From the sequence record NC_048170.1: DNA of 64,000 bases. One strand, 5' to 3'. Origin of the DNA: Escherichia phage vB_EcoM_Goslar. Within the stretch, counting starts at the first letter, position 1. Every line of letters begins with the position of its first letter. The position numbers were made by a program, and so were the translations under genes. Below the pieces are notes generated by a model. The model was not told the DNA's origin. It did not search any database and was given only the letters and a program-made list of their open reading frames with translations. Below, piece after piece: positions 14,455 to 60,150 of this stretch.

Positions 14455-14493
14455 TTTAACAGCATAAACCCTTCCTGCGTAAGGCAGGAAGGG
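14455..14493 (-). terminator. rho-independent terminator-like hairpin (10-bp stem CCCTTCCTGC, loop gtaag, then UUUAUGCUGUU on minus strand)
   Basis: Inverted repeat at 14469..14493, just downstream of 14508..15005. Confidence 0.55.
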
Positions 14494-21660: not shown

Positions 21661-21688
21661 CGGCATAAGCCCTCCCATGCCGGGAGGG
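21661..21688 (-). terminator. hairpin CCCTCCC-atgcc-GGGAGGG downstream of 21694..22122
   Basis: Inverted repeat 21670..21688; weak U-tract (CUUAUGCC) on minus strand. Confidence 0.45.
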
Positions 21689-25395: not shown

Positions 25396-28473
<3,078 letters not shown>

Positions 28474-31122: not shown

Positions 31123-31311
31123 CGCAGCATACCCACCATGCCGATTACGGCAAACAGTATACCGACCGCACTATACGCAAGCAGCGCTTTAGCAACCCAA
31201 GATTTTATTTCCGTATACTCTTCATTATTCACCATGTCTCACCTCGTTCGGTTATTGTCTGATCTCATACCTTTACTTAAGCATATCCCCGTCATTAAGA
31301 CGGGGTGTTTA

Positions 31312-34919: not shown

Positions 34920-35126
34920 TCAGTCCAACATAAGCCACGGCATCGCTTTCGCGATAGAATCCACCGCAGCATTTGCGATCCTTCGTTCAGTCGTTGGTAC
35001 CACATGCGCAACAAACCGTTTCCCTTTATTGCAACCTTTCTTGTGTTTTCCTTTGACTAAACGAACACCGATCATGTCGCTGATAACATGATTTAGTATG
35101 TGGCGCTGTAGAGAATTAATCATCAC
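34920..35126 (-). CDS. small basic protein with degenerate K-K-G-x-x-K-G-K motif (family member 3)
   Basis: ...LVKGKHKKGCNKGKRF. Confidence 0.35.
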   Translation of the reverse strand: MMINSLQRHILNHVISDMIGVRLVKGKHKKGCNKGKRFVAHVVPTTERRIANAAVDSIAKAMPWLMLD

Positions 35127-35262
35127 TTTTACTCCAGGCTGAGAAGATTCTCGGTTTTAGTTCTATCTGTCCACATATCCAGGTGTATCTCCATTTACCT
35201 TTACGAGGACCTTTCTTATTTTTAACACCTATCAGAATACGGTAGGGGTACGACCAAGTCAT
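35116..35262 (-). CDS. small basic protein (48 aa) with K-K-G-P-R-K-G-K motif (family member 4), below ORF-track cutoff
   Basis: Hand translation from ATG 35262: MTWSYPYRILIGVKNKKGPRKGKWRYTWICGQIELKPRIFSAWSKSDD, stop at 35118..35116. Confidence 0.3.
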   Translation of the reverse strand: MTWSYPYRILIGVKNKKGPRKGKWRYTWICGQIELKPRIFSAWSKSDD

Positions 35263-35291
35263 TCTAACCTCCTAAATAAATCTCAATGTTC

Positions 35292-35618
35292 TTAATGCAG
35301 TTGCTTCTTAAAACCTAATTTAAGAAGCGTCATTCTCTTGTCGATGGTATCTAATGCTTCCAGCAAGGATTCACGCTGTTCTTTCGTAAGCATATCGACG
35401 CGTAGACGTTCGTTAATTTCTGCTTTAAGCTGTATAGGAAGGGTTTGTGTAAGTATGCTATCAGCCTCCATCTCGTAACTATTTTTCGGTATGGGTAATG
35501 CTTCAGTAACACCAGTGAGATAAAAACCGATAGTGGTTACTCGTTCATCCATTGCTTCTAACAGTTCAGAACTTACTTCATCCACGATAGTCCTCCGTAT
35601 TAGGGTGGGCGTACCCAC
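35292..35618 (-). CDS. hypothetical protein (start uncertain)
   Basis: ORF track; first codon is GTG inside a hairpin; alternative ATG at 35552. Confidence 0.4.
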   Translation of the reverse strand: MGTPTLIRRTIVDEVSSELLEAMDERVTTIGFYLTGVTEALPIPKNSYEMEADSILTQTLPIQLKAEINERLRVDMLTKEQRESLLEALDTIDKRMTLLKLGFKKQLH

Positions 35619-35632
35619 CCTCAGTTGTTAAT

Positions 35633-36652
35633 TTACACCGCCACCTTAGCCTTGATAGCGGGGTGTGATTGATATCCGACGAACACAAAGTCTTCGTAAC
35701 GGTAATCCGTAATACTTTCTGGTTTACGTACGATTGTTAGCTTCGGTAATGGATACGGCTCACGACTAAGTTGTTCTTTAACCTGTTCGAAGTGGTTGTG
35801 ATAGATGTGACAATCTCCACCCGTCCACACGAACTCACCAACGTCCATATTCAGCTGTTGGGCAAGCATGTGTGTCAGCAGTGAATATGATGCGATGTTA
35901 AAGGGAGTCCCTAAAACTGTGTCCTGTGATCTTGCGAGTAGCATGCATGATAAGGCGCGTGTCGGTACGTTGTGTGTATTCAACCAAAGTTCCGTTTCAC
36001 TGTGTCGTACATCATCCGTAACCCACTGGGTTCTTAATACGTCGTTGCGTTGAACATAATCAACACGTTCATCGATCGTGAGCTCGTGGGTATAGAACTG
36101 ATAGAAACTGTGGCATGCGGGAAGCGCCATATCGTCTAAATCACCTACGTTCCATGCGCTAACGATGATCCGTCGAGAATCAGGGTCTTCTTTAAGCTGA
36201 CGCATCACGTTTGCGATTTGGTCGTGGTGTTTAACATACAAGAGATGTTTGACCATACCGGCGTCAACAACACCGCAATACTCATAGCCGCGTTGCATCA
36301 ACTCACGAGTACGTTCTGTATCGTGCGGAACAACCACTTTGTAGTCGATCCATTCCCGCCATTGTTTGCCGTAAATCGGTCCTAGATTCCCTTCTTCGTC
36401 AGCCCATTCATTCCAGATACGAACACCGTTATCTTGAAGATAAGCAACGTTTGTGTCGCCGTTAAGAAACCAGAGCAGTTCGTGGATAACGCTCTTAAGG
36501 TGAATCTTCTTGGTGGTTACCAGCGGGAATCCTTTCTTCAAGTCAAAACGCATCTGACGCCCGAATACGGAACGGGTCCCGGTGCCTGTACGATCAGCTT
36601 TATCGCGACCGTTATCCATGATGTCTTGCAAAAGGTCCAAATACTGTTTCAT
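35633..36652 (-). CDS. thyA: thymidylate synthase (ThyA family) with two insertions
   Basis: [15 protein letters not shown]...[59 protein letters not shown] (catalytic Cys), [25 protein letters not shown]; 339 aa versus about 264 aa for bacterial ThyA. Confidence 0.9.
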
Positions 36653-36852
36653 TTTAATCCTCTAAGTGTTTCAAGTAGTTCCTGAAATTTATAACGATAT
36701 TTAGGATCGCTTAACGTGTAGCAGCAACCATGTAACACGTTATACGCGTAATCGGCTTGTAAACCACGAACCTTCGGATCCAATGATAGATTCAACGGTG
36801 CATCATCAAAAATCCACGCTTCAATGTTCTTCTTGGATTCCTTCGTTAACAT
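36649..36852 (-). CDS. hypothetical protein (67 aa)
   Basis: ORF track; ATGA overlap with thyA start. Confidence 0.4.
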
Positions 36853-36972
36853 CGTTTTTCACCTCGTCGTAAAAGTAAATAGAGTTTTGTCGAGACGCCC
36901 TAATTACTTACAACGTCGGTTCTCCCGGCTTCAGAGAATTCTTAAAATCCGTTAGTTTTGATAGATAGGGTA

Positions 36973-37005
36973 AGACGGCATAAAAGCCTCCCATTACGGG
37001 AGGCT
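36973..37005 (-). terminator. rho-independent terminator (8-bp stem AGCCTCCC/GGGAGGCT, loop attac, UUUUAUG on minus strand)
   Basis: Inverted repeat 36985..37005 just downstream of 37018..37566. Confidence 0.6.
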
Positions 37006-37017
37006 CTATTAATCAGC

Positions 37018-37566
37018 TTATTTCACAAGAACAGCGAATTCGAGAACATGAATAGCTTCATCGTCCATCGGATTTGTCGTGGTATAACCGACGAAGCAAT
37101 AGCCCATATCCACGATAAACTCTCTAAGTTTATCGATGACTGATGCCCCGATACGATCGTCAACAGACAGGCGACATTTACGGGTTATGTTTTGCCCGCG
37201 AGGAACGCCAGCTAACACGGATAGGAAATGTACGATCCGGTTATTGGTTGCGAACTGCTTGAAATCATCGTAGTGCTTAAGGTCTTTCATCGCAGACTCT
37301 ACCGTCATACGACGACCAGGCGACACATACTCAGAATAAGAATAAGCTGCAATCGTGCGGCGGTCTTCAGTGAGGTAAGTATTCCCTTCGGGATGATAGC
37401 TCTCGATTGTTCCGTCTTCATAAGCGACGGTCACAACAGGTGCGCCGTACTCGTCGCGACCGAAATCAATTTTACATTTATCCGAAAGCGGTAGAACCGT
37501 GCAAGGTTTTGCGTTGTTCTCATCAGGGAGATCGTAACCACTCATCATTTTCAAGAACATAGACAT
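37018..37566 (-). CDS. hypothetical protein (182 aa), paralog of 37653..38186
   Basis: Shared MS.I.K.M...D.SD.NNAKP and ATYAYS motifs, similar C-terminal ending VLVK/VIVK. Confidence 0.5.
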   Translation of the reverse strand: MSMFLKMMSGYDLPDENNAKPCTVLPLSDKCKIDFGRDEYGAPVVTVAYEDGTIESYHPEGNTYLTEDRRTIAAYSYSEYVSPGRRMTVESAMKDLKHYDDFKQFATNNRIVHFLSVLAGVPRGQNITRKCRLSVDDRIGASVIDKLREFIVDMGYCFVGYTTTNPMDDEAIHVLEFAVLVK

Positions 37567-37604
37567 AATAGAACCTCATGATAATAGATAATAGAAATGA
37601 TAGA

Positions 37605-37642
37605 TAGTACAACAAATTGAGGGGGTATTATCCCACCCCCTC
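37605..37642 (-). terminator. terminator-like hairpin (stem GAGGGGGT/ACCCCCTC) downstream of 37653..38186
   Basis: Inverted repeat 37619..37642 followed on minus strand by CAAUUUGUUGU. Confidence 0.5.
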
Positions 37643-37652
37643 GTAGGGATTA

Positions 37653-38186
37653 CTACTTAACGATCACGATGATTTTTCCGCCCGCACCAGCGTAATATGC
37701 CGTTAAATTACCAGTAAACAACTCTTGTAAAAGACGATTTACGTGACTAACAAAGTTAGGATTGTCTGATTTTACAAACTCGATATTGCGCGTTTGTTTT
37801 ATATCACGATCGATTAAGCGTATTTCCAACAACGCACAAATAAGGCGATCGTCAAGTTTACCACTTGCATCCAGCACTTCTCCATACTTCGTAGCACGGA
37901 CGTCTGCATACATACGGTCAACATCATCCTTCCCAAAACCACAGGAATAGGCGTACGTTGCGATGGTATTACCATTGTCCATCACATAAACGTTACCGCC
38001 TGGGTAATCGATGAATCGTTGATCCTTATCACCATGAGCGACGAACTCCAGTGTCGGTCTACCTAGTGAATCGCGATTGAATTCGATTGTGGTCAAACGG
38101 TCAGGCACCACATGCAATGTAAACGGTTTCGCATTGTTACGATCGCTAGTATCGCAGTTAGCCATTACTTTTACAATAACACTCAT
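37653..38186 (-). CDS. hypothetical protein (177 aa), paralog of 37018..37566
   Basis: See paralog. Confidence 0.5.
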   Translation of the reverse strand: MSVIVKVMANCDTSDRNNAKPFTLHVVPDRLTTIEFNRDSLGRPTLEFVAHGDKDQRFIDYPGGNVYVMDNGNTIATYAYSCGFGKDDVDRMYADVRATKYGEVLDASGKLDDRLICALLEIRLIDRDIKQTRNIEFVKSDNPNFVSHVNRLLQELFTGNLTAYYAGAGGKIIVIVK

Positions 38187-38262
38187 GTTTATTCCTTAGT
38201 AGTCCTAGTAGTAGTAGTATTGAGGAATTTCACCTCATTAGATAATCAACTTTGGTAATGTT

Positions 38263-38595
38263 TTACTGAAACAAGACATTAAATTCGACGAGATACCCAT
38301 CGGATCTATCACCACGATATCTGTTGCAGAAAACACCGAATTTCATCAAGAACGCACATAACTCTTCGGCTTTGTATAGCGGAATACGATTTTCGTCGAG
38401 CAGAGGGCACTTATGGCTAACCCGCTCCGACGAATCAACGCAACACAAATAAAGAAGGAACCGAACGATAGCCCGGTTCTTAGTGAAGCTCTCGAATTCA
38501 CCTGCAGTTCTGAACTCATCGAGGAGCTTTGTCGTTTTCTTCAATCGTTCACGATCAAGCATGTTAACCTCAACACGAACATAACCCTCCTCCAA
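38263..38595 (-). CDS. hypothetical protein (110 aa)
   Basis: ORF track. Confidence 0.4.
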   Translation of the reverse strand: MEEGYVRVEVNMLDRERLKKTTKLLDEFRTAGEFESFTKNRAIVRFLLYLCCVDSSERVSHKCPLLDENRIPLYKAEELCAFLMKFGVFCNRYRGDRSDGYLVEFNVLFQ

Positions 38596-38626
38596 CCCGT
38601 AAGGGAAGGAGGAGGTGATTATGCTG

Positions 38627-38941
38627 TTATTCTGTTTTAGGTGATGAGCCGTTCTTCTTGAAGTCGGATTCGTATTTCACGTTAGAATCGAGAACCTCAC
38701 GAACGGTTTTATCCGTACAGCCACGAGCGATGTATGCATTAAGATCATCACGTAATTTACGCATCGTTGTTTTATCCGCATCAGAAATATCTGACTTGGT
38801 AAGACGGAATGCGATTGCATCACGAATTTTATTCAACGTTGCTGGGTTATTACGCTGCTCTACAAATACCGCTTTGATGAATGTACCGCTATCTTTCGAA
38901 GCGATGGCTGCATCAAGAATCTCAATATGCTTTTCAGACAT
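38627..38941 (-). CDS. hypothetical protein (104 aa)
   Basis: ORF track. Confidence 0.4.
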   Translation of the reverse strand: MSEKHIEILDAAIASKDSGTFIKAVFVEQRNNPATLNKIRDAIAFRLTKSDISDADKTTMRKLRDDLNAYIARGCTDKTVREVLDSNVKYESDFKKNGSSPKTE

Positions 38942-38992
38942 CTTCTTTCCTTTAATAAACGATCATCGTCATATTCATTGCGCAGGACGCTA

Positions 38993-40246
38993 TCACTTCG
39001 GAAGCTTAGAGGCCGCCATGCTTCGCGCCTTCGCAACGTCATACGCATCCATGATTGCATCACCGATAGCGGTATGACGGATCAACGGAATACCCATATC
39101 TGGATACTCTTTGGTACCTAAGATGGATACCGGTTTGTCTTGATATGCGGCAATCATCGAACGGATATCCTGAACCTGGTTATAACGACAAACTGGCTTA
39201 AAGCCTGCTTTACGGAACCAATGCTCTAATTGAGGCCAATCTGTTTCACCGCGAGCAAGATAATAGAAGGTATCCTTACCGTAGTAATCAGTAAACACTT
39301 CACGAATTGTGTTAATAAACTCGTTTACTTCGGCGATGGCTTCTTTATAATCCATCACTTTACTATGTTGAAAACAATAGTCACGCGCTTCCTTCGGTGC
39401 TTTGGTTTGCCACCATTCTACCGTTGATTCACTGATACGACCACCGTCGGCGATTTGACCGTGAACGTCAGGGAAGATATCTATACGTGGACCGTTAGCG
39501 ATGGATTCCGGATTAGCTAGATCAAAGAACACAATACCGATTTCCAGCAGTACCCCGTTCTTTTCCAGACTGAGATTCTCAACATCCAGACAAAAAGCGG
39601 GTTTCTCTACCGTTGAAAGATCAAAACGTCCCTCATATCGTGGTGCTGGCTCGGCACCAAGGAACGTCTCTCGGATGAACTGGGAGAATGTTATATTCTC
39701 TGCTACTAAATCAATACCCAATTTACTTAACAAAGGTATAAGTTCACGATCGTTCTGCTGAATTAGCAACATTACTTGGTCGTTGACACAACAACTAATT
39801 GAGTAAAAGAGATGAACGATATCTAACGGTTTGTACGGAGCCTCAAAAATATGTGTCTGGAACGATTGGGCTAGCGCCTTATGCGTTTCTTCACGATGAT
39901 TCATCAGTTGGAAAATAGCACAGCGCAGATAATGTCGAAGTGTTATCTCGTGAAGATGCGACGTATCTTCTTGAAATAACGTCATGAAACCGTGATACGT
40001 ATAATACTCTCCTCTTTTAATTTCTTCGTGGAGTTCTTTGTTCCCCTTTATTTCTTCTGGCGTTATCGGGTCGATCTGATCACGGATAATGTTGAGTAGA
40101 TCATCGCCGTGTACCTTAAACAGTTTTTCAACGTCAAGATTAGGTAATGTCGCAATCGCCGCGTACATTAATGTTTCTGCGGGATTAAGTTCTTTATTGT
40201 CGATTGTGGTGGTTAAAGCCATTTTATTATACCTCATCGAAATCAA
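38993..40246 (-). CDS. protein with C-terminal DEDDh-type 3'-5' exonuclease domain (DnaQ-like)
   Basis: Exo I-like FCLDVENLSL, Exo III-like IRHTAIGDAIMDAYD (H-x-A-x-x-D-A) in the C-terminal 200 aa. Confidence 0.55.
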   Translation of the reverse strand: MISMRYNKMALTTTIDNKELNPAETLMYAAIATLPNLDVEKLFKVHGDDLLNIIRDQIDPITPEEIKGNKELHEEIKRGEYYTYHGFMTLFQEDTSHLHEITLRHYLRCAIFQLMNHREETHKALAQSFQTHIFEAPYKPLDIVHLFYSISCCVNDQVMLLIQQNDRELIPLLSKLGIDLVAENITFSQFIRETFLGAEPAPRYEGRFDLSTVEKPAFCLDVENLSLEKNGVLLEIGIVFFDLANPESIANGPRIDIFPDVHGQIADGGRISESTVEWWQTKAPKEARDYCFQHSKVMDYKEAIAEVNEFINTIREVFTDYYGKDTFYYLARGETDWPQLEHWFRKAGFKPVCRYNQVQDIRSMIAAYQDKPVSILGTKEYPDMGIPLIRHTAIGDAIMDAYDVAKARSMAASKLPK

Positions 40247-40266
40247 ATTAGTTCAGTTCTGGTTTA

Positions 40267-40602
40267 TCATTCCGGTCTATCAGCAGTCAGACCAAGTCCA
40301 GTCAACATCACGTAGTCGTACCAAGCTTTTACTTTTGCTTTCGCCTCATCTAAACTGAATGCGTTGATGTGTGGAAACTCATCGTTGACTGGGAAAGGTA
40401 AATCGCAGTCGTAGCTTGTATAATCCTTCCAACCTTTCCACTCGATAGTTAGAGAACCAAAAACGGTCTCAGCGACAACATGGTTATAGCGACATTCTTC
40501 ACATGGCGAGCGCTCTTCCGACCAAACAAGCTCATGCTGCGCTAAAAGTTGTTGTATGACCGATAACGGTTGCTCTTCATTAAGTTCGATGCTGTCTATC
40601 AT
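40267..40602 (-). CDS. hypothetical protein (111 aa)
   Basis: ORF track. Confidence 0.4.
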   Translation of the reverse strand: MIDSIELNEEQPLSVIQQLLAQHELVWSEERSPCEECRYNHVVAETVFGSLTIEWKGWKDYTSYDCDLPFPVNDEFPHINAFSLDEAKAKVKAWYDYVMLTGLGLTADRPE

Positions 40603-44961: not shown

Positions 44962-44988
44962 CAGCATAAACCCTCCCCGAAGGGAGGG
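44962..44988 (-). terminator. terminator-like hairpin CCCTCCC-(UUCG loop)-GGGAGGG followed by UUUAUG on minus strand
   Basis: Inverted repeat 44971..44988 immediately downstream of 44999..45556. Confidence 0.55.
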
Positions 44989-51953: not shown

Positions 51954-53528
51954 TTACAATTCAAAATCTTCATCGATAACACGCTGGGTAAGCACCTTGT
52001 CGCTGAAGAACTCCACCTTGCGCTGATGGTATTTACGGTGCGCTTCGATAGATGTACATACCAGATACCAGAACGTTGGTGTCATTCCTTCGAACTTCCC
52101 TTTCAGCTGACGTAGGCGTCCCAATACCTGAATGTTACCGGTTCGTGACCCCATCGCTAACGTCATGAACGTCATCACCAAGTCAGGGAGGTCGATACCT
52201 GTACCTGCCGATTTCACCGTCGTAACGCTGATATCGTTATCCAACAAGACCATGAAATCTTCTTCAGCAGTATAAGGACCAATCTCTAACTCAGGAATAC
52301 GTTCACTGAGATAATGCGATAACGACTTACACATATCAACGGTTGCACAATACACCAGCATCTTCATGCCTTCCTGATACTGGTTCATGAAACCTTTGAT
52401 GATAACGGTATAGATAAAGTTGAAATAGGCGAGTTTGAGTTGCTTGTTCTTCATGATAGACTGTTCGAATATCGTGTGAGAATAAGAACCCCCAAAGCCT
52501 TTGTATCTGACTTTATCTGTACTGCGTAATCGATACGTTACCGCATTTACCGCAATGTATTTCTTGTATTCGCATTTCGCATAACGTGCTTCTTTCGGAT
52601 ACATCAAATACAACATCCGTTCGATGAACGGATCGTCGGACACTGCCGTTGCTGACAGATAGATGATTTCCGGAATATTCGCGTAACACTTCACTTTGAA
52701 CAAGAAATGCAATGCTTCGTGACATTCATCATGGATTAACAACCCAATGCCTGTTTTCTCCCAGAACTCGACAGGATGGAAAACATAAGGTGCGACACAG
52801 TTGTTCTTTTCATAATCGGTTATGTATCTCTGAAACATGTTCAGCGAGAATAACGCAATTTTGAAATCCAGCTCACCTTGTTCCACCAACGTCTGGAATT
52901 CCAGCATGCTGTAACGAGGAATGTCTGGATGTGGTGGGTCAGATTGAGCTGTGCCACGTATCTCGATAACATCGCCCGGTTCCATACCGAAGAAACTTAG
53001 CAGTGAGCTACGCCAACCAGGCATGTATCTCGGTGACAGGATAATACCCGTCCGTACACCGCGTCGGAAGGTGATCTCCTGCGACATGGCTGTTTTACCA
53101 GACCCCGTGCCTGCGGTGTTTAAGCTCATTCTGAAGGGGGTATCCTTACCCCCGTCCATGTACTCCAACCATTCTTGTTGATCTTCACGCCACGGAAACT
53201 TCCATTTCTTTACGAACTCCACTTCCTTACCTGGCACTGGATCGTGATAAACGATTTCCAACCACTCTTTTCGGATTCCTCGAGAGAAGATAAAATCCAA
53301 AAACGATTTCAACTGTTCGCGGAGTAAGTATACCTCGCTATAATCGCTTCTCGCTGCGGCATACGTGTTTATGGTATCGGTAACCATTCTCCGTGTACGA
53401 GGGTCACGCCGTTTCCTCAGATGCAAACAACGGTCTCGAAGGTAATGGCCGATAAGATGGGCAAATCGAAGTCCGTATCCGCTCAGCCTCATGCCATGCG
53501 AGAAGACGTCGATACGAGCTAACTTCAT
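51954..53528 (-). CDS. superfamily II DExH-box helicase
   Basis: Motif I GTGSGKT, motif II LIHDECHE, motif III LSATAV, motif V AGTGIDLPD, motif VI QVLGRLRQ. Confidence 0.65.
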   Translation of the reverse strand: MKLARIDVFSHGMRLSGYGLRFAHLIGHYLRDRCLHLRKRRDPRTRRMVTDTINTYAAARSDYSEVYLLREQLKSFLDFIFSRGIRKEWLEIVYHDPVPGKEVEFVKKWKFPWREDQQEWLEYMDGGKDTPFRMSLNTAGTGSGKTAMSQEITFRRGVRTGIILSPRYMPGWRSSLLSFFGMEPGDVIEIRGTAQSDPPHPDIPRYSMLEFQTLVEQGELDFKIALFSLNMFQRYITDYEKNNCVAPYVFHPVEFWEKTGIGLLIHDECHEALHFLFKVKCYANIPEIIYLSATAVSDDPFIERMLYLMYPKEARYAKCEYKKYIAVNAVTYRLRSTDKVRYKGFGGSYSHTIFEQSIMKNKQLKLAYFNFIYTVIIKGFMNQYQEGMKMLVYCATVDMCKSLSHYLSERIPELEIGPYTAEEDFMVLLDNDISVTTVKSAGTGIDLPDLVMTFMTLAMGSRTGNIQVLGRLRQLKGKFEGMTPTFWYLVCTSIEAHRKYHQRKVEFFSDKVLTQRVIDEDFEL

Positions 53529-55531
53529 AACGTGATTACATCCTCCGGTTTAGGTTCTTTACGCGGTAAAAGCATGTAGTCGATCGGATGATCCGGCTTC
53601 ATGGTTGGGATATAACTGTTCGGGTTTTGGAACGCATCCAGTTGCTCTTGGTGAGCGAACTTCATACTCAAGGAGCGCATGTTCATGTTCTTCTTGAAGG
53701 TACTGAAGTATCGTGTTGTTCCCTGTTTCGGCATGCGATAATCTTTCGTGTGTGGTGAACGAATCATGCTGGCGTAGAGAATAACATCGAGATGCGAAAG
53801 GTTCATTCGCAGACGCTGGGCACACAGACGATGCCAATAGTACAGCACGTTTGCAACTTCTTCCGGTGTCGCTTCGTCTTCCGAAAGGAATCCGGCACTG
53901 AAAGAACCTTTCCCGAATTTGAATTCACGTTCGATTTCTTTTGCGTATTCCATCATGTTTTTGTGGATTAACGGCATCTGGAATAACGTACGTGAATTGT
54001 CCCAATGTTTCAAGTCGAAAATCACAATCCCGTCAGACGTCACTTCCCAGCTATGGCGTTTAAGATAACGGATAAACGCTTTACTCGGGACAACGGGACG
54101 TCCACAGAAATCGAAATTGACTTTGAGCTTACGGTAGCTTTCATCTTTCCTGTCGTAAATCTCCATATCACAAAGCGTCATGTTAAACAGGCGTTGCGGT
54201 ATCAGCGAACTGATTTCTTCCGCTTCCGCTACATCGTACAACATGTTCGCAAGACCTAACTTCATCTTAATCAGCACGTGTTTACCTTTCAGCTCACGTG
54301 CGAGTTTGATGTCGTTCATATTCTGGCTGTAGCGAAGGATATGTTGATATTCCGGTGGGATTGGTGCTGTGGATACCGTTGACGAACCATCATGGTGTTT
54401 GGTAGAAAGAATGTTCTGCGTTACCTGTTGCGAACAGGTACGCGCTGCGCCATCGCCGACATTATCGGTTAGTGCGAAGTTATGACTTAATTCACCGTAA
54501 CACGTCGTACATACCCCAGCAGGATCGGGATGATGACAATAGTTAACGGAGCGCATACGCACTGTGGTGCCGATCAATTCTTTCATGTGTGGTTGTATCG
54601 CTACCAACGAACCGTCATCGCGAATAATGAATCGACCGTGGAAGCCACGCAGGTCGGTCTCATCACGGATTGGCATCGGGATGGTCTCTTTACTACCACA
54701 ATCTCCAGGATGGAGTCGTTGTACAACCGCTGTCGCTATCTGAAGTTCACGACCGAAATATTCAGACTTCTTGATCTGCTCTTTGTTGAACAGCAACGAC
54801 TTCGCCGCAGAACGACTTTCTTTCAAGCTGTCGGGAAGAGAGATCAAACCTGCCGCGTACGACCGCATTACTGGATCACGGAATATCTCGGAGTTAATAT
54901 CGGTCAAGAATCCACGCATCCCAATACACTGCAGCACCTGCCCAATCGAAACGTGTTCGGTTCGTACCGCACGCGCAATAGGGTTTGCGTGTAACGTTTT
55001 ATCGGTGCTCAGTACCTTGGTCAGTTTCTTGTATGCGCTTTCGATACCTTCACGGGTGGGTTCCGCTTCGGCGATGATTTTCTTAACTTCAGGATGTACG
55101 GTAATCTGATAAAAATCATCCGCGCAAATAGTCGTTACGTATTCCTCCAGCGCATACGTAAAGAAGTTATATACATTGTTAAACATATCGAACAATGCTT
55201 TCCAGAGAACCTCACGATTCTCTTGTGGATAAGCATACATGCATTGACGATACGCGGCGCTTTGCAACGCAACCGACGAACCAGCAGTAAACTTGCGTTT
55301 ATCGACCAGGTTCTCTTTTGTCAATGGTGTCTCAGGATACATGCGATGCACAGACCAGTGCATGTAACTAAAGAAAATGCGTCGCGCACGCAATTCATGA
55401 ACGCCATCGTCCATCTCGATATATACACGGTCATTAGGCTGTGCCCACTCGAATACTTCATCAACCGGCCAGTGCATAAGCTCGCGTGCCCTCACACGAC
55501 GTTTCGTGGTGGTCGTCTGTGTTATAGTCAT
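53525..55531 (-). CDS. multisubunit RNA polymerase beta-prime-like protein (C-terminal half homolog)
   Basis: VRMRSVNYCHHPDPAGVCTTCYGEL...AARTCSQQVTQNILSTKHHDG parallels E. coli beta-prime [22 protein letters not shown]...[22 protein letters not shown]; upstream IGQVLQCIGMRGFL parallels LNVLQYFISTHGAR; no NADFDGD motif, consistent with a split subunit. Confidence 0.55.
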   Translation of the reverse strand: MTITQTTTTKRRVRARELMHWPVDEVFEWAQPNDRVYIEMDDGVHELRARRIFFSYMHWSVHRMYPETPLTKENLVDKRKFTAGSSVALQSAAYRQCMYAYPQENREVLWKALFDMFNNVYNFFTYALEEYVTTICADDFYQITVHPEVKKIIAEAEPTREGIESAYKKLTKVLSTDKTLHANPIARAVRTEHVSIGQVLQCIGMRGFLTDINSEIFRDPVMRSYAAGLISLPDSLKESRSAAKSLLFNKEQIKKSEYFGRELQIATAVVQRLHPGDCGSKETIPMPIRDETDLRGFHGRFIIRDDGSLVAIQPHMKELIGTTVRMRSVNYCHHPDPAGVCTTCYGELSHNFALTDNVGDGAARTCSQQVTQNILSTKHHDGSSTVSTAPIPPEYQHILRYSQNMNDIKLARELKGKHVLIKMKLGLANMLYDVAEAEEISSLIPQRLFNMTLCDMEIYDRKDESYRKLKVNFDFCGRPVVPSKAFIRYLKRHSWEVTSDGIVIFDLKHWDNSRTLFQMPLIHKNMMEYAKEIEREFKFGKGSFSAGFLSEDEATPEEVANVLYYWHRLCAQRLRMNLSHLDVILYASMIRSPHTKDYRMPKQGTTRYFSTFKKNMNMRSLSMKFAHQEQLDAFQNPNSYIPTMKPDHPIDYMLLPRKEPKPEDVITL

Positions 55532-57596: not shown

Positions 57597-59765
57597 TTAG
57601 CTTTCGCAGTCATCTGCGTCGATGATTTGTCCGCCAGCAACGTTCAGCTGATGATACAGAATCCTCAACGCACGGTTGCCACCAATGGGATACTTCTCGA
57701 AGTTGGTTGCAATAGGAATCGCTGACGGCTTATCGGTCGCATAGATACTTTCAGTGATGCTATCCACCTGTTTTGGATTGTTCGCATAATCCATAAAGAC
57801 GCTTGCGAACCATCCGCCAGCAAAGGCGGTAACTTCGCGATGTTCAGATTCGCCACAGTAACGAGTTGGTTGCTCTTTACCCGGAGAACTGTATTTATCG
57901 CTATTACTGAGTTTCGACGGTAATCCATGCGCTTGCAATTTAGGAATACCCACAGCCGACCAATCGTTCGCCGTCTTCTCCAACATCATGATGTACGTGT
58001 CACCGATCGCAATATCGTTCTTGGTTGTCCGCCACTGCCCAGAACGCCCACGGTATCGTACAGGACCTTTCTTCAACGGGAACTCACGAATCAGATTCTC
58101 CATACGTTCTGAACCTGCTGCGATACTGTCCGTCGGGATATAAACTTCCGTACCGTGGCGTTGTACATACCGTAAATGATCCCATTTATCCTCATCCGTG
58201 ATACAGTATTTTTCAACAACCTGTTCCACGAATTCAGGACTGACGATATAGTAGTAACGCATTAGTGTGTTCCAAGCGGTCTCCAGATCGCCTGCATCCA
58301 TCACTGGTTTCAGTTCACGCATGATCTGATCGCCAACACCGTTGATGTAAGGTGCATTAACACGACTTAAACTCATCCTTTTGATTACCGTGCTATCGTC
58401 AAACATAAAGTCTGCAACGTTACCCCATTGGTCAACCGGCATCTCATCATCTTCCATGATGTCGGTTACGACGAATTTATCACCCGCCATACCAGTGAAT
58501 TTAAACCCGATACCTGGAACAACGTCGTACGTGTACGTGATGGTCACACGCCAATCATCGAGATTCTCTTTGCGGTAATCGCGGGTCGGTAACACATGAC
58601 GTAGCTGTCCATTAGGATTGCGGATATCAATACCATGTTCAGCATCAGCCAGGTTCAACCACCACATCACCGTTTGATGATGACGTATCGGCGTACCAAC
58701 GCGTTCACGTTCATACTTACGAACAGCATCCTGAATTCGGGTGTAAAGCAAACCGATTGCGTTCTCGTATTTCAGGAATTGACGATACGGAGGACGCATC
58801 TTCTCTTCCATCATAATCGCACGCTCGCGGGCTTGACGTCCAGAACGACGATGCCGGTCGCTGACAACATCGATATCCGTTACACGCGCATTCGGTTCAG
58901 CGTAAGTGAGGTCATCGTAAACATAATCCACACGCTGAAGATTACACGTCATCATGTCAACAACGCTGAGGATAGGATCTATTTCGCGTGTTGCTGCAAG
59001 TAACCCATCTTTACGAATACGCTCACCGTTCTCGGGTATTGCTTGATATACCTCATCATCGCCGTAGAGATTGATTGGGTATCGCGATTTACCTGATGTG
59101 ATTGTTCGCTTCTCAATGCCGGTACTGGTGAAATGTTTCAATACACCACGACGGGCAACACCACCATCCTCGATACACTGATAGAAGCTACCGAAACACA
59201 CTTTACAATCGCGACCGTAACCCCACTCGCGTGTTTCTTGATTGATCGCTGGGCTTTCCATCAAACGAGAATATCGCGGTACGATCTGGCCTCGACGGAG
59301 GGAATGGAACAAGTTGGTTGGTCGAAAACGGAAACCGTACTGCTGATGCATGATGTGATGCTCAGGCACTTCAAGCAAGCGTAGTTCGTGGCGGTTACCA
59401 TCCTCTTGGTTTTCATACAGCACGTAATGCATCGTGTTTGTTTTGATGCTGTTTGCTGTATGCCCCGGTTGGAAACGTGGGATGATATCTATGATGCGAG
59501 ATTCGACTGGAAACTCTACTGACCAAGTGTTCTGTCCGTACTGGTATTCAATCCCCGTCGTTAGTCGGGACGGTTTCGCATCTTTGATAACCAACGCTTG
59601 GCTAAGATGTCCACCAAACATCGCAGCGCGCTGTGCTGAGTTATAATGCAATAGCCCGTTAAGTCCAGTCCCTACGCCAGTATACTCCTGTTTAATGGGA
59701 ATGATTTTACCTTCAGCGATTGCCTGCTTCACAGATTCATAAAGAGGTTTTTCTTTATAATGCAT
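57597..59765 (-). CDS. multisubunit RNA polymerase beta-like protein (C-terminal half homolog)
   Basis: FKFTGMAGDKFVVTDIMEDDEMPVDQWGNVADFMFDDSTVIKRMSLSRV parallels E. coli beta [47 protein letters not shown]; also YIMMLEK versus YMYMLKL and a C-terminal segment parallel to GQRFGEMEVWALEAYGA; start placed at ATG 59765 preceded by AGGAAG (ORF track 57597..59930). Confidence 0.6.
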   Translation of the reverse strand: MHYKEKPLYESVKQAIAEGKIIPIKQEYTGVGTGLNGLLHYNSAQRAAMFGGHLSQALVIKDAKPSRLTTGIEYQYGQNTWSVEFPVESRIIDIIPRFQPGHTANSIKTNTMHYVLYENQEDGNRHELRLLEVPEHHIMHQQYGFRFRPTNLFHSLRRGQIVPRYSRLMESPAINQETREWGYGRDCKVCFGSFYQCIEDGGVARRGVLKHFTSTGIEKRTITSGKSRYPINLYGDDEVYQAIPENGERIRKDGLLAATREIDPILSVVDMMTCNLQRVDYVYDDLTYAEPNARVTDIDVVSDRHRRSGRQARERAIMMEEKMRPPYRQFLKYENAIGLLYTRIQDAVRKYERERVGTPIRHHQTVMWWLNLADAEHGIDIRNPNGQLRHVLPTRDYRKENLDDWRVTITYTYDVVPGIGFKFTGMAGDKFVVTDIMEDDEMPVDQWGNVADFMFDDSTVIKRMSLSRVNAPYINGVGDQIMRELKPVMDAGDLETAWNTLMRYYYIVSPEFVEQVVEKYCITDEDKWDHLRYVQRHGTEVYIPTDSIAAGSERMENLIREFPLKKGPVRYRGRSGQWRTTKNDIAIGDTYIMMLEKTANDWSAVGIPKLQAHGLPSKLSNSDKYSSPGKEQPTRYCGESEHREVTAFAGGWFASVFMDYANNPKQVDSITESIYATDKPSAIPIATNFEKYPIGGNRALRILYHQLNVAGGQIIDADDCES

Positions 59766-59796
59766 AGGACTTCCTATTATCGAATTGAGGTACGTC

Positions 59797-60150
59797 ATGT
59801 CTAACACGCCCCTGAACGACTTTCTTAAGACAAACCCCGATGACCTCATCCACGATCTTGATTTCAGGAACGTTGTTGAGATGCATCTGGAATATTTCAA
59901 AAATGCCGGACTGGTCTCTACGATAGACATACCACCCGAACGCGCCTACGAATTCGATGGTAACTTTTATGGATTGTGTCGTGTTCTGCTCGGCGAGGGT
60001 AGCGAACCAATGCACTGGATCACCCTGAGACTCAATGGTTATCGCGACCCTACGGAATACACCGCCGATGTTCTAACCATGAAGATTGTCGATACAAGCG
60101 CAATCAACACATTAAAACAACAGTACCGCACAATCCACTACAGCGCTTAA
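59797..60150 (+). CDS. hypothetical protein (117 aa), lone plus-strand gene
   Basis: ORF track 59785..60150; ATG 59797 preceded by GAGG; followed by hairpin. Confidence 0.4.
   Translation: MSNTPLNDFLKTNPDDLIHDLDFRNVVEMHLEYFKNAGLVSTIDIPPERAYEFDGNFYGLCRVLLGEGSEPMHWITLRLNGYRDPTEYTADVLTMKIVDTSAINTLKQQYRTIHYSA

Follow-up and report, generated by a model that had tools for sequence, protein, structure and literature searches.

Large phages commonly carry tandem paralogs with hairpins between them. In the hyperplastic regions of T4-type phages, Arbiol, Comeau and Krisch are said to have described in 2010 a cassette type named PeSL, in which repeats of a stem-loop plus a promoter reportedly split small accessory genes from one another; in their model, recombination between the motifs is said to shuffle, delete, and insert genes. 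Here we describe an array around two adjacent genes, gp143 and gp144, of Escherichia phage vB_EcoM_Goslar (NC_048170.1), within a stretch of 64,000 nucleotides that was analyzed as a whole and is called the window below. The two genes are new, locally amplified members of an uncharacterized, widespread phage domain family, set in a familiar cassette layout. The account that we favor, with a probability of roughly 0.55, is of a modular cassette family with probable terminators for phage RNA polymerase, encoding what may be non-structural accessory proteins that face the host or its defenses.

Chimalliviruses, the nucleus-forming phages to which Goslar belongs, have their own RNA polymerases and many terminators; in the related 201phi2-1, 132 have been mapped, and these have conserved hairpin motifs (PMC11512511). 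For the non-virion RNA polymerase of phiKZ, the late-promoter consensus is TATG, with the transcription start at the G (PMC4666361). A Goslar cryo-electron microscopy (cryo-EM) and mass-spectrometry preprint (bioRxiv 10.64898/2026.04.21.720040) proposes that another repeated family, DUF7941, forms baseplate-anchored filaments, and gives its module as restricted to chimalliviruses.

Two related genes and their products

The genes and domains needed first are as follows.

37018..37566, minus strand: gene A, Goslar gp143 (YP_009820828.1), an open reading frame (ORF) of 182 amino acids (aa)
37653..38186, minus strand: gene B, Goslar gp144 (YP_009820829.1), an ORF of 177 aa
37327..37566, minus strand: N-terminal domain (N-domain) of gp143, residues 1 to ~80, conserved and all-beta
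Residues ~81 to 182 of gp143, minus strand: C-terminal domain (C-domain), alpha/beta
37938..38186, minus strand: N-domain of gp144, residues 1 to ~83, homologous to that of gp143

A sequence-only reading of this DNA had called the two genes paralogs and proposed a pairwise alignment as the check. The alignment bears this out: BLASTP pairs residues 1 to 78 of gp143 with residues 1 to 81 of gp144 at 29/81 identities (36%; E 8e-14), above background. Among the 427 window ORFs of at least 40 aa, each protein is the other's sole strong phmmer match (E ~1e-11), and the two N-domain families match with 98.5% probability in a profile-profile comparison. On these comparisons gp143 and gp144 are true paralogs, born by duplication, with a similarity far above chance. 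Of the motifs that had been listed as common to both, NNAKP is indeed found in each, and ATYAYS is confined to gp144, gp143 reading AAYSYS. The supposed common C-terminal motifs find no support in the sequences: hhalign detected no significant match between the C-terminal halves (E 0.83), and the ends have only the final V-K in common.

AlphaFold2 (AF2) models of gp143 (predicted local distance difference test score, pLDDT, 92.4; predicted template modeling score, pTM, 0.80) and gp144 (pLDDT 84.6) have the same order of elements at nearly equal spacing, with seven strands followed by helix-helix-helix-strand-helix-strand-strand. With Foldseek, the gp144 model aligned to the gp143 model in BFVD over 188 columns with a template modeling (TM) score of 0.68 and an E of 3e-12; as a benchmark, our own gp143 model scored no better against that BFVD entry (TM 0.67). 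The two C-domains are thus predicted to have one common fold. By these measures the duplication is old, because the identity amounts to 36% and is limited to the N-domain, and the C-domains are recognizable by predicted fold alone.

The gene A protein is A0A482GHT7 of phage Goslar at 100% identity (Foldseek, BFVD), and in the RefSeq record of the phage both proteins already carry the annotation hypothetical protein. The computed mass of the gene A product is 20637.2 Da, compared with 20637.5 Da for HOV27_gp143 in Table S4 of the preprint (10.64898/2026.04.21.720040), and that of the gene B product is 19832.3 Da, compared with 19832.5 Da given there for gp144; the table's masses of gp143, gp144, gp146, gp141, and gp121 all agree with ours within 1 Da. 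A megablast search of the locus against phage, plasmid, and complete Escherichia coli collections returned no match, the phage collection evidently being without Goslar. Scans against Pfam, NCBIfam, and PADLOC assigned no family to the Goslar proteins, to their free-standing homologs, or to ten long homologs; Pfam gave nothing above noise for gp143, gp144, or gp145 (the next gene of the array), and a sequence-profile search of the PDB gave noise only. An Rfam scan of 35000..40500 found nothing relevant. Literature searches that covered Goslar gp143, gp144, and gp145 and a fitness screen across the Goslar genome yielded no data on function.

The N-terminal domain in other phages

A profile built from both Goslar N-domains and 21 free-standing homologs was compared with 1.84 billion proteins. 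At E<=1e-3 it matched 521 cluster representatives (clustered at 50% identity) in metagenome data, among them those of gp143 (E 6e-25) and gp144 (E 3e-21). The domain begins within 6 residues of the N terminus in 147 of the 150 matches listed; in gp143 and gp144 it begins at residue 1. Among 175 representatives, 129 are 125 aa or shorter and 43 are 140 aa or longer and carry C-terminal extensions, which fall into 27 clusters that are mutually unrelated by BLASTP at E 1e-4. The motif of the domain is MxxLKMMSGEDxxDxNxSKxF...GNxYVMxNGKTIASFAYS, and both Goslar proteins conform to its conserved residues K6, M8, D15, K20, G61-N62, Y64, T71, and A73 (gp143 numbering). The domain is acidic, with a median isoelectric point (pI) of 4.8 and 91% of values below pI 6. 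A nucleic-acid-binding function was considered and judged unlikely, since the domain is uniformly acidic.

In an hmmscan against PHROG, phrog_10337 matched gp144 at E 1.8e-7 and gp143 at E 3e-3, and phrog_10807 matched gp144 at E 5.4e-6 and gp143 at E 8e-3. Homologs found by tblastn or Foldseek come from the chimalliviruses Erwinia Agricanvirus, Pseudomonas phage 201phi2-1 (gp34), Phabio, and Proteus phage 10, and also from Acinetobacter Obolenskvirus phages, which have 45-kb genomes and form no nucleus; tblastn places the homolog at a single position per genome in those phages. The N-domain is therefore, as far as these searches reach, widespread in phages, strongly conserved, and usually a free-standing protein of ~80 aa, and it has no Pfam entry. 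With 521 clusters, it is defined well enough to curate and to test, which is a useful by-product of the analysis.

The free-standing genes have varied surroundings. At L019 and L020 (L numbers denote our loci from other genomes), the gene lies between a Mu-F-like head-morphogenesis gene and the scaffold and major-capsid genes, and in Acinetobacter phage WCHABP12 it comes just after the portal and head-morphogenesis genes. In other phages it adjoins the DNA polymerase and chimallin genes or sits in T4-like accessory regions. General head-module synteny was accordingly rejected, as it holds in three lineages only. Homology to JADA, the Avs5 defense activator, was likewise dropped: JADA is related to phiKZ_124, and tblastn with the N-domain gave no phiKZ record.

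The array in Goslar and its relatives

Three further features belong to the array or border it.

38263..38562, minus strand: gene C, by position Goslar gp145, 99 aa, a free-standing homolog of the gp143 C-domain
38187..38262, minus strand: gp145-gp144 spacer, a hybrid whose 5' part corresponds to the C-D spacer of relatives and whose 3' part corresponds to their D-B spacer
38627..38941: gp146, the capsid penton "latch," 104 aa, assigned by a mass match in Table S4 of the preprint

Residues 93 to 157 of gp143 match residues 25 to 89 of gp145 (phmmer E 7e-6), and hhalign joins the gp143 C-domain family and the gp145 family with 97% probability (E 1e-10, 85 columns). The longest ORF of gp145 begins at a TTG at 38595 and encodes 110 aa. 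This start is probably wrong, and the ATG at 38562 is probably the true one, because the extension (38563..38595) overlaps the hairpin that follows gp146 and the relatives encode 99 aa from the ATG. The C-domain, queried with gp145 and with the paralog D described below, gave no tblastn match in 50,697 phage records.

The relatives are contigs of ~235-250 kb in isolate assemblies of Salmonella, E. coli (including O157), Shigella, and Enterobacter, with homologs 65-99% identical; persistence of Goslar-like phages in bacterial isolates has been reported (bioRxiv 10.1101/2024.12.31.630880). Their gene order is latch - C (99 aa) - D (199-201 aa) - B - A - DUF7448 - ... - thyA, where D is a third full-length paralog (A versus D, E ~1e-16 over ~165 residues). 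Of 14 Goslar-like loci, all have A, B, and C and 11 have D, which is missing in Goslar, L010, and L001. In lineage L022 (a 236-kb contig), the locus has only one family gene, which encodes 185 aa and lies between the latch gene and DUF7448 with A-type spacers on both sides. Its protein occurs on 11 contigs and is 36% identical to A and 33% identical to D, each over nearly the full length. The number of full-length copies hence varies from 1 to 3, since L022 has one and the D-bearing relatives have three. What had been described as a pair is part of an array of gp145 (a C-domain), D, gp144, and gp143.

Selection was estimated as pairwise dN/dS (ratio of non-synonymous to synonymous substitution rates). 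Over the whole gene the value is 0.16 for gp143, 0.14 for gp144, and 0.14 for gp145. The N-domains give 0.07 (gp143) and 0.05 (gp144), and the C-domains give 0.22 (gp143) and 0.24 (gp144). Non-synonymous evolution is 3-6 times faster in the C-domain than in the N-domain. By these estimates gp143 and gp144 are under purifying selection, and because both are kept in this state at 14/14 loci, they are not redundant recent copies.

Spacers and allele exchange

Every full-length copy has a GC-rich hairpin behind it and then a short linker, which is conserved, and more so than the genes are. At the DNA level, identity is 90-99% in the gp144-gp143 spacer, compared with 67-94% in the coding sequences on either side. 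Copy gain and loss (1 to 3) maps to the linkers. In the gp145-gp144 spacer of Goslar, the 5' part consists of a weak hairpin, GAGGUGAAAUUCCUC, followed by UACUAC; in the alignment with relatives the hybrid is exact, and its junction falls in the repeated linker of hairpin plus UACUAC. The other two loci that lack D, L010 and L001, have the same hybrid spacer, although one of them is in a different allele class. The hybrid, as aligned, marks the site at which D was lost, as recombination between the C-D and D-B spacers would yield.

Identity to Goslar is 92-96% for the latch gene, 93-97% for thyA, 70-97% for A, 65-93% for B, and 57-97% for C, and L004 combines an A of 95% and a C of 93% with a B of 65%. 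Judged by such combinations, alleles of neighboring genes assort independently among Goslar-like genomes. The family genes behave in these alignments as cassettes whose copy number appears to be changed by recombination between hairpin-bearing spacers, and the pattern is as expected if conserved regulatory spacers are the crossover points. As a further by-product, the locus offers a clear chimallivirus case of copy-number change and allele shuffling by way of conserved hairpin and linker spacers.

Goslar and L011 are without the DUF7448 gene (287-294 aa) that comes after gp143 in most relatives. The deletion junction, at 36925..36930 (compared with L004:7173-8233), is a microhomology of a few bases, GGGAGA/GGGGA, between the A-DUF7448 and DUF7448-gp142 spacers.

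We also observed that gp143 and gp145 alleles co-vary across L001-L017: a C of 93-97% goes with an A of 94-97%, and a C of 57-59% with an A of 70-82%. gp144, which lies between them, assorts independently of both. The co-variation may hint at a functional pairing of gp143 and gp145, with only about four haplotypes represented.

Hairpins and promoter-like motifs

The hairpins and motifs of the array are as follows.

36983..37007, minus strand: hairpin after gp143, 10 nucleotides (nt) past the stop codon, with a 10-bp GC-rich stem (core AGCCUCCC/GGGAGGCU) and a 5-nt loop
36982..36979, minus strand: TATG abutting the hairpin after gp143
37619..37642, minus strand: hairpin after gp144, 10 nt past the stop codon, GAGGGGGUG-GGAUAA-UACCCCCUC, with a 9-bp stem
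38586..38615, minus strand: hairpin after gp146 (the latch gene), CCUCCUCC..CCC-UUAC-GGG..GGAGGAGG, then GUUAUG
38583..38580, minus strand: TATG after the gp146 hairpin, 18 nt upstream of the gp145 ATG
37598..37607 and 36959..36968, minus strand: 10-mer CTATCTATCA, 11 nt past the gp144 hairpin and 14 nt past the gp143 hairpin, respectively

A hairpin had been claimed after each gene as its own terminator. Both hairpins are present and terminator-like, and their stems are invariant in the four related genomes aligned. The gp143 hairpin is followed by UUUUAUGCC, with UUUUAU as its tail; it folds at -19.7 kcal/mol over an 81-nt region (z -2.3), and across L001-L004 and L022 the stem is invariant and the loop variable. 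The gp144 hairpin, with 6 GC pairs in its stem, a 6-nt loop, and the tail AAUUUGUUGU, is invariant in L001-L004 and has no TATG after it. Its tail has the 5 T in 8 bases set as the scan criterion, yet the U-tract is interrupted and U-poor. A much more stable fold is that of the gp146 hairpin (-33 kcal/mol over an 86-nt region; z -4.8), which none of 200 shuffles equaled in stability; it is kept in L004 with changes to internal-loop and loop bases. The relatives' D has a 9-bp hairpin of its own, and C only a weak one. The 10-mer CTATCTATCA has two exact copies in the window and, with one mismatch allowed, 8 matches where 3.1 would be expected; relatives conserve it only in part.

Hairpins after genes are frequent in the window. 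When a hairpin is required to fold at -10 kcal/mol or lower and to lie no more than 70 nt past the stop codon, 34/96 genes have one, and for this reason the hairpins are no special mark of the gp143-gp144 pair. TATG, usually as (T)TATGC, abuts 11 of these 34, compared with 2 of 40 intragenic control hairpins (Fisher p 0.002). Examples beyond the array lie at 14469..14493, 21670..21688, 31287..31305, and 44971..44988 and at the 28554-side, 50657-side, and 57175-side positions. By analogy with phiKZ and 201phi2-1, a hairpin directly before (T)TATG(C) would be a candidate combined terminator and promoter module of the Goslar RNA polymerases, and the one after gp146 a candidate terminator and promoter of a gp145-gp144 transcript. 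Such a module would be of use in its own right, Goslar being a model nucleus-forming phage. A literature search found no Goslar transcript map.

Within the 86-nt gp144-gp143 spacer there is no TATG except one that overlaps the gp143 start codon, and neither a TATG-type nor a sigma-70-type promoter was found from the gp144 hairpin to the gp143 start. Since this spacer is without a promoter-like TATG, gp143 may be reached by read-through of the gp144 hairpin. The arrangement in L022, where a gp143-type leader sits downstream of the gp146 hairpin and TATG, suggests that the leader has no promoter of its own. The two genes had also been described as independent transcription units; this is not established, as promoter-like elements were identified only upstream of gp145 and downstream of gp143.

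On our reading, the hairpins would be terminators used by Goslar's own RNA polymerases. gp145 and gp144 would be transcribed from the hairpin and TATG module behind gp146, and the gp144 hairpin would end or attenuate that transcript; gp143 would be reached by partial read-through of the hairpin or from a promoter of unrecognized type; and at the gp143 hairpin with its TATG the array would come to an end and transcription would start anew towards gp142 and thyA.

Two other explanations bear on these elements. One is a simple tandem duplication in which either copy has a promoter and a terminator to itself, so that the two genes would be transcribed independently and be largely redundant. The genes are adjacent, similar in length, and on one strand, their N-termini are homologous, and a conserved hairpin and then the 10-mer follow each; yet the identity of 36% covers the N-terminal half only, both genes are kept under purifying selection in 14/14 genomes, and their alleles assort independently. 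Together with the missing TATG or sigma-70 promoter between the gp144 hairpin and the gp143 start and the position of the leader in L022, this makes such a duplication quite unlikely.

The other explanation is that the hairpins are not primarily terminators and serve instead in RNA stability or processing, or at the DNA level as recombination hotspots for cassette exchange. That hairpins begin 3-40 nt past stop codons and in gene orientation argues for termination, as does the coincidence of hairpin motifs with mapped 3' ends in 201phi2-1, where eight were tested for termination in vivo (PMC11512511). Hotspots would, for their part, account for spacers more conserved than the flanking genes and for a D deletion junction inside repeated hairpin and UACUAC linkers; several hairpins, that of gp144 included, are without a good U-tract, and many, in the window at large, have CCUCCC/GGGAGG stems in common. 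The roles are not mutually exclusive, and we regard a primary role other than termination as rather improbable.

Abundance in virions and possible function

According to the preprint, mass spectrometry of CsCl-purified Goslar virions detected 3 peptides of gp143 and 2 of gp144. The copies per virion were estimated there at ~4.5-10.5 for gp143 and ~1.1-2.6 for gp144, compared with 13.5-32 for thymidylate synthase, an evident contaminant. The passages of the preprint (10.64898/2026.04.21.720040) covered here do not name either protein among the structural or high-copy virion proteins. The 201phi2-1 homolog, gp34, is without a virion mass-spectrometry note, unlike its neighbors. Because the copies lie below those of thymidylate synthase and neither protein is named as structural in those passages, we treat gp143 and gp144 as expressed, putatively non-structural proteins. 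A high-copy internal protein of the T4 IPI-III type, which an N-terminal sequence targets to the capsid, was considered and set aside, the copies of both proteins in those data being lower than those of a cytoplasmic contaminant. PADLOC, whose models are of defense systems and leave anti-defense proteins outside their coverage, matched 0/8 family proteins at E<=1.

The main rival to a non-structural role is that gp143 and gp144 are low-copy virion or head-assembly proteins, the N-domain docking on capsid, portal, or scaffold and the C-domain being carried or accessory. The array lies directly downstream of gp146, the penton latch, and is apparently fed by a hairpin and TATG module like the phiKZ late promoter, N-domain genes stand in the head modules of L019/L020 and WCHABP12, and gp143 peptides were recovered from purified virions at the copy number given above. 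We consider this rival unlikely, given estimates under those of a contaminant, no naming of either protein as structural or high-copy in the passages covered, and no virion note for gp34 next to neighbors that have one; moreover, the gene elsewhere adjoins DNA polymerase and chimallin or lies in T4-like accessory regions, and it would be unusual if structural components varied from 1 to 3 copies.

The variable copy number and the trace-level abundance in virions favor a view of gp143 and gp144 as accessory, non-structural proteins. The acidic N-domain, being strongly conserved across hosts, might bind a conserved protein partner, and the C-domain, being fast-evolving and swappable, might provide specificity or an effector function. 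Interaction with the host or its defenses would be the most likely arena. Several points weigh against this account. The pairwise dN/dS values show no positive selection, which an arms-race role of the C-domain might predict. The alignment behind the gp144 model held five gp143-family sequences, a possible bias to the gp143 fold. The context of the free-standing N-domain genes is inconsistent, being a head module in three lineages and DNA-polymerase-adjacent or accessory elsewhere. Finally, the terminator and promoter roles in Goslar are drawn from motif and analogy.

A more general proposal is that the acidic ~80-aa N-domain is a universal phage adaptor on one conserved target, either a host machine or a component of the virion or its assembly, and that it acts alone or carries interchangeable C-terminal effectors, which would make the Goslar array a polymorphic effector locus that cassette recombination has diversified. 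We hold this to be doubtful. Were it true, the array would be the phage counterpart of polymorphic toxin or internal-protein loci, and the co-variation of gp143 and gp145 would hint that the free C-domain pairs with the fused one or competes against it.

Other features of the window

The remaining features are listed here.

38993..40246: gp147, by position, an Rv2179c-like exonuclease adjoining the array
35633..36652: gp141, thymidylate synthase (thyA), mass match in Table S4
35605..35624: hairpin after thyA, with an 8-bp GC stem, AGGGUGGG-UACG-CCCACCCU
26090..28165: gp121, NAD-dependent ligase, mass match in Table S4
53525..55531 and 57597..59930: RNA-polymerase subunits of the split multisubunit beta type

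The window also encodes large tail-fiber proteins. Its gene content marks a phiKZ-like jumbo phage, in keeping with Goslar as a nucleus-forming chimallivirus. For the gp147 exonuclease we observed two allele classes across L001-L016, ~53% and ~84% identical to that of Goslar, which do not track the gp143-gp146 alleles and thus add to the gene-level mosaicism. The thyA hairpin extends over the GTG (35618) at which the next ORF (35292..35618) begins, and this start, too, is possibly mis-set. Goslar thyA is intact; at L011:2652-4778 the thymidylate synthase gene is split (249 + 99 aa) by a 284-aa GIY-YIG/NUMOD3 homing-endonuclease gene.

Comparison with described systems

The nearest sequence relatives of gp143 and gp144 are phrog_10337 (99 aa) and phrog_10807 (379 aa, of the Erwinia phage Ea35-70 gp196 type), which have the N-terminal ~80-aa domain in common with them. 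In the phages with homologs, tblastn found the gene at a single place per genome, and the C-terminal part is different or absent, whereas the Goslar lineage has 1-3 tandem copies and a free-standing C-domain. In layout, the array follows an ordinary phage accessory-gene pattern; the finding of tandem paralogs is in itself routine, and its interest is modest.

Two observations accord with the model of PeSL cassettes in T4-type phages: the hybrid spacer that remained when D was lost, and alleles that assort independently. Unlike in those cassettes, the repeated element is here a GC-rich hairpin with a TATG or UACUAC linker, presumably read by multisubunit phage RNA polymerases; no sigma-70-like site was found in the array spacers, and the PeSL promoter is reportedly a sigma-70 early promoter.

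Among multi-copy chimallivirus families, DUF7941, found in Goslar and other chimalliviruses, resembles gp143 and gp144 in that some members, according to the preprint (bioRxiv 10.64898/2026.04.21.720040), combine a conserved N-module with variable C-domains. No homology between the two families was detected, and gp143 and gp144 differ from DUF7941 in that they are present at trace level in virions and in that their N-domain also occurs in 45-kb non-nucleus phages. The internal-head, injected PF12699 family of phiKZ (gp92-97, gp162, and gp163) likewise consists of tandem chimallivirus paralogs, single members of which tolerate disruption. Its proteins are high-copy, proteolytically processed head proteins, in contrast to the trace amounts of gp143 and gp144 detected in virions. 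Membership of gp143, gp144, or gp145 in PF12699 was rejected, as none has a Pfam match.

The hairpins themselves resemble intrinsic (rho-independent) terminators and those of 201phi2-1 (PMC11512511) in their 9-10 bp GC-rich stem, short loop, and U-containing tail past the stop codon. They differ from intrinsic terminators in that the gp144 tail is U-poor and interrupted and in that some Goslar hairpins are fused to a TATG promoter-like motif.

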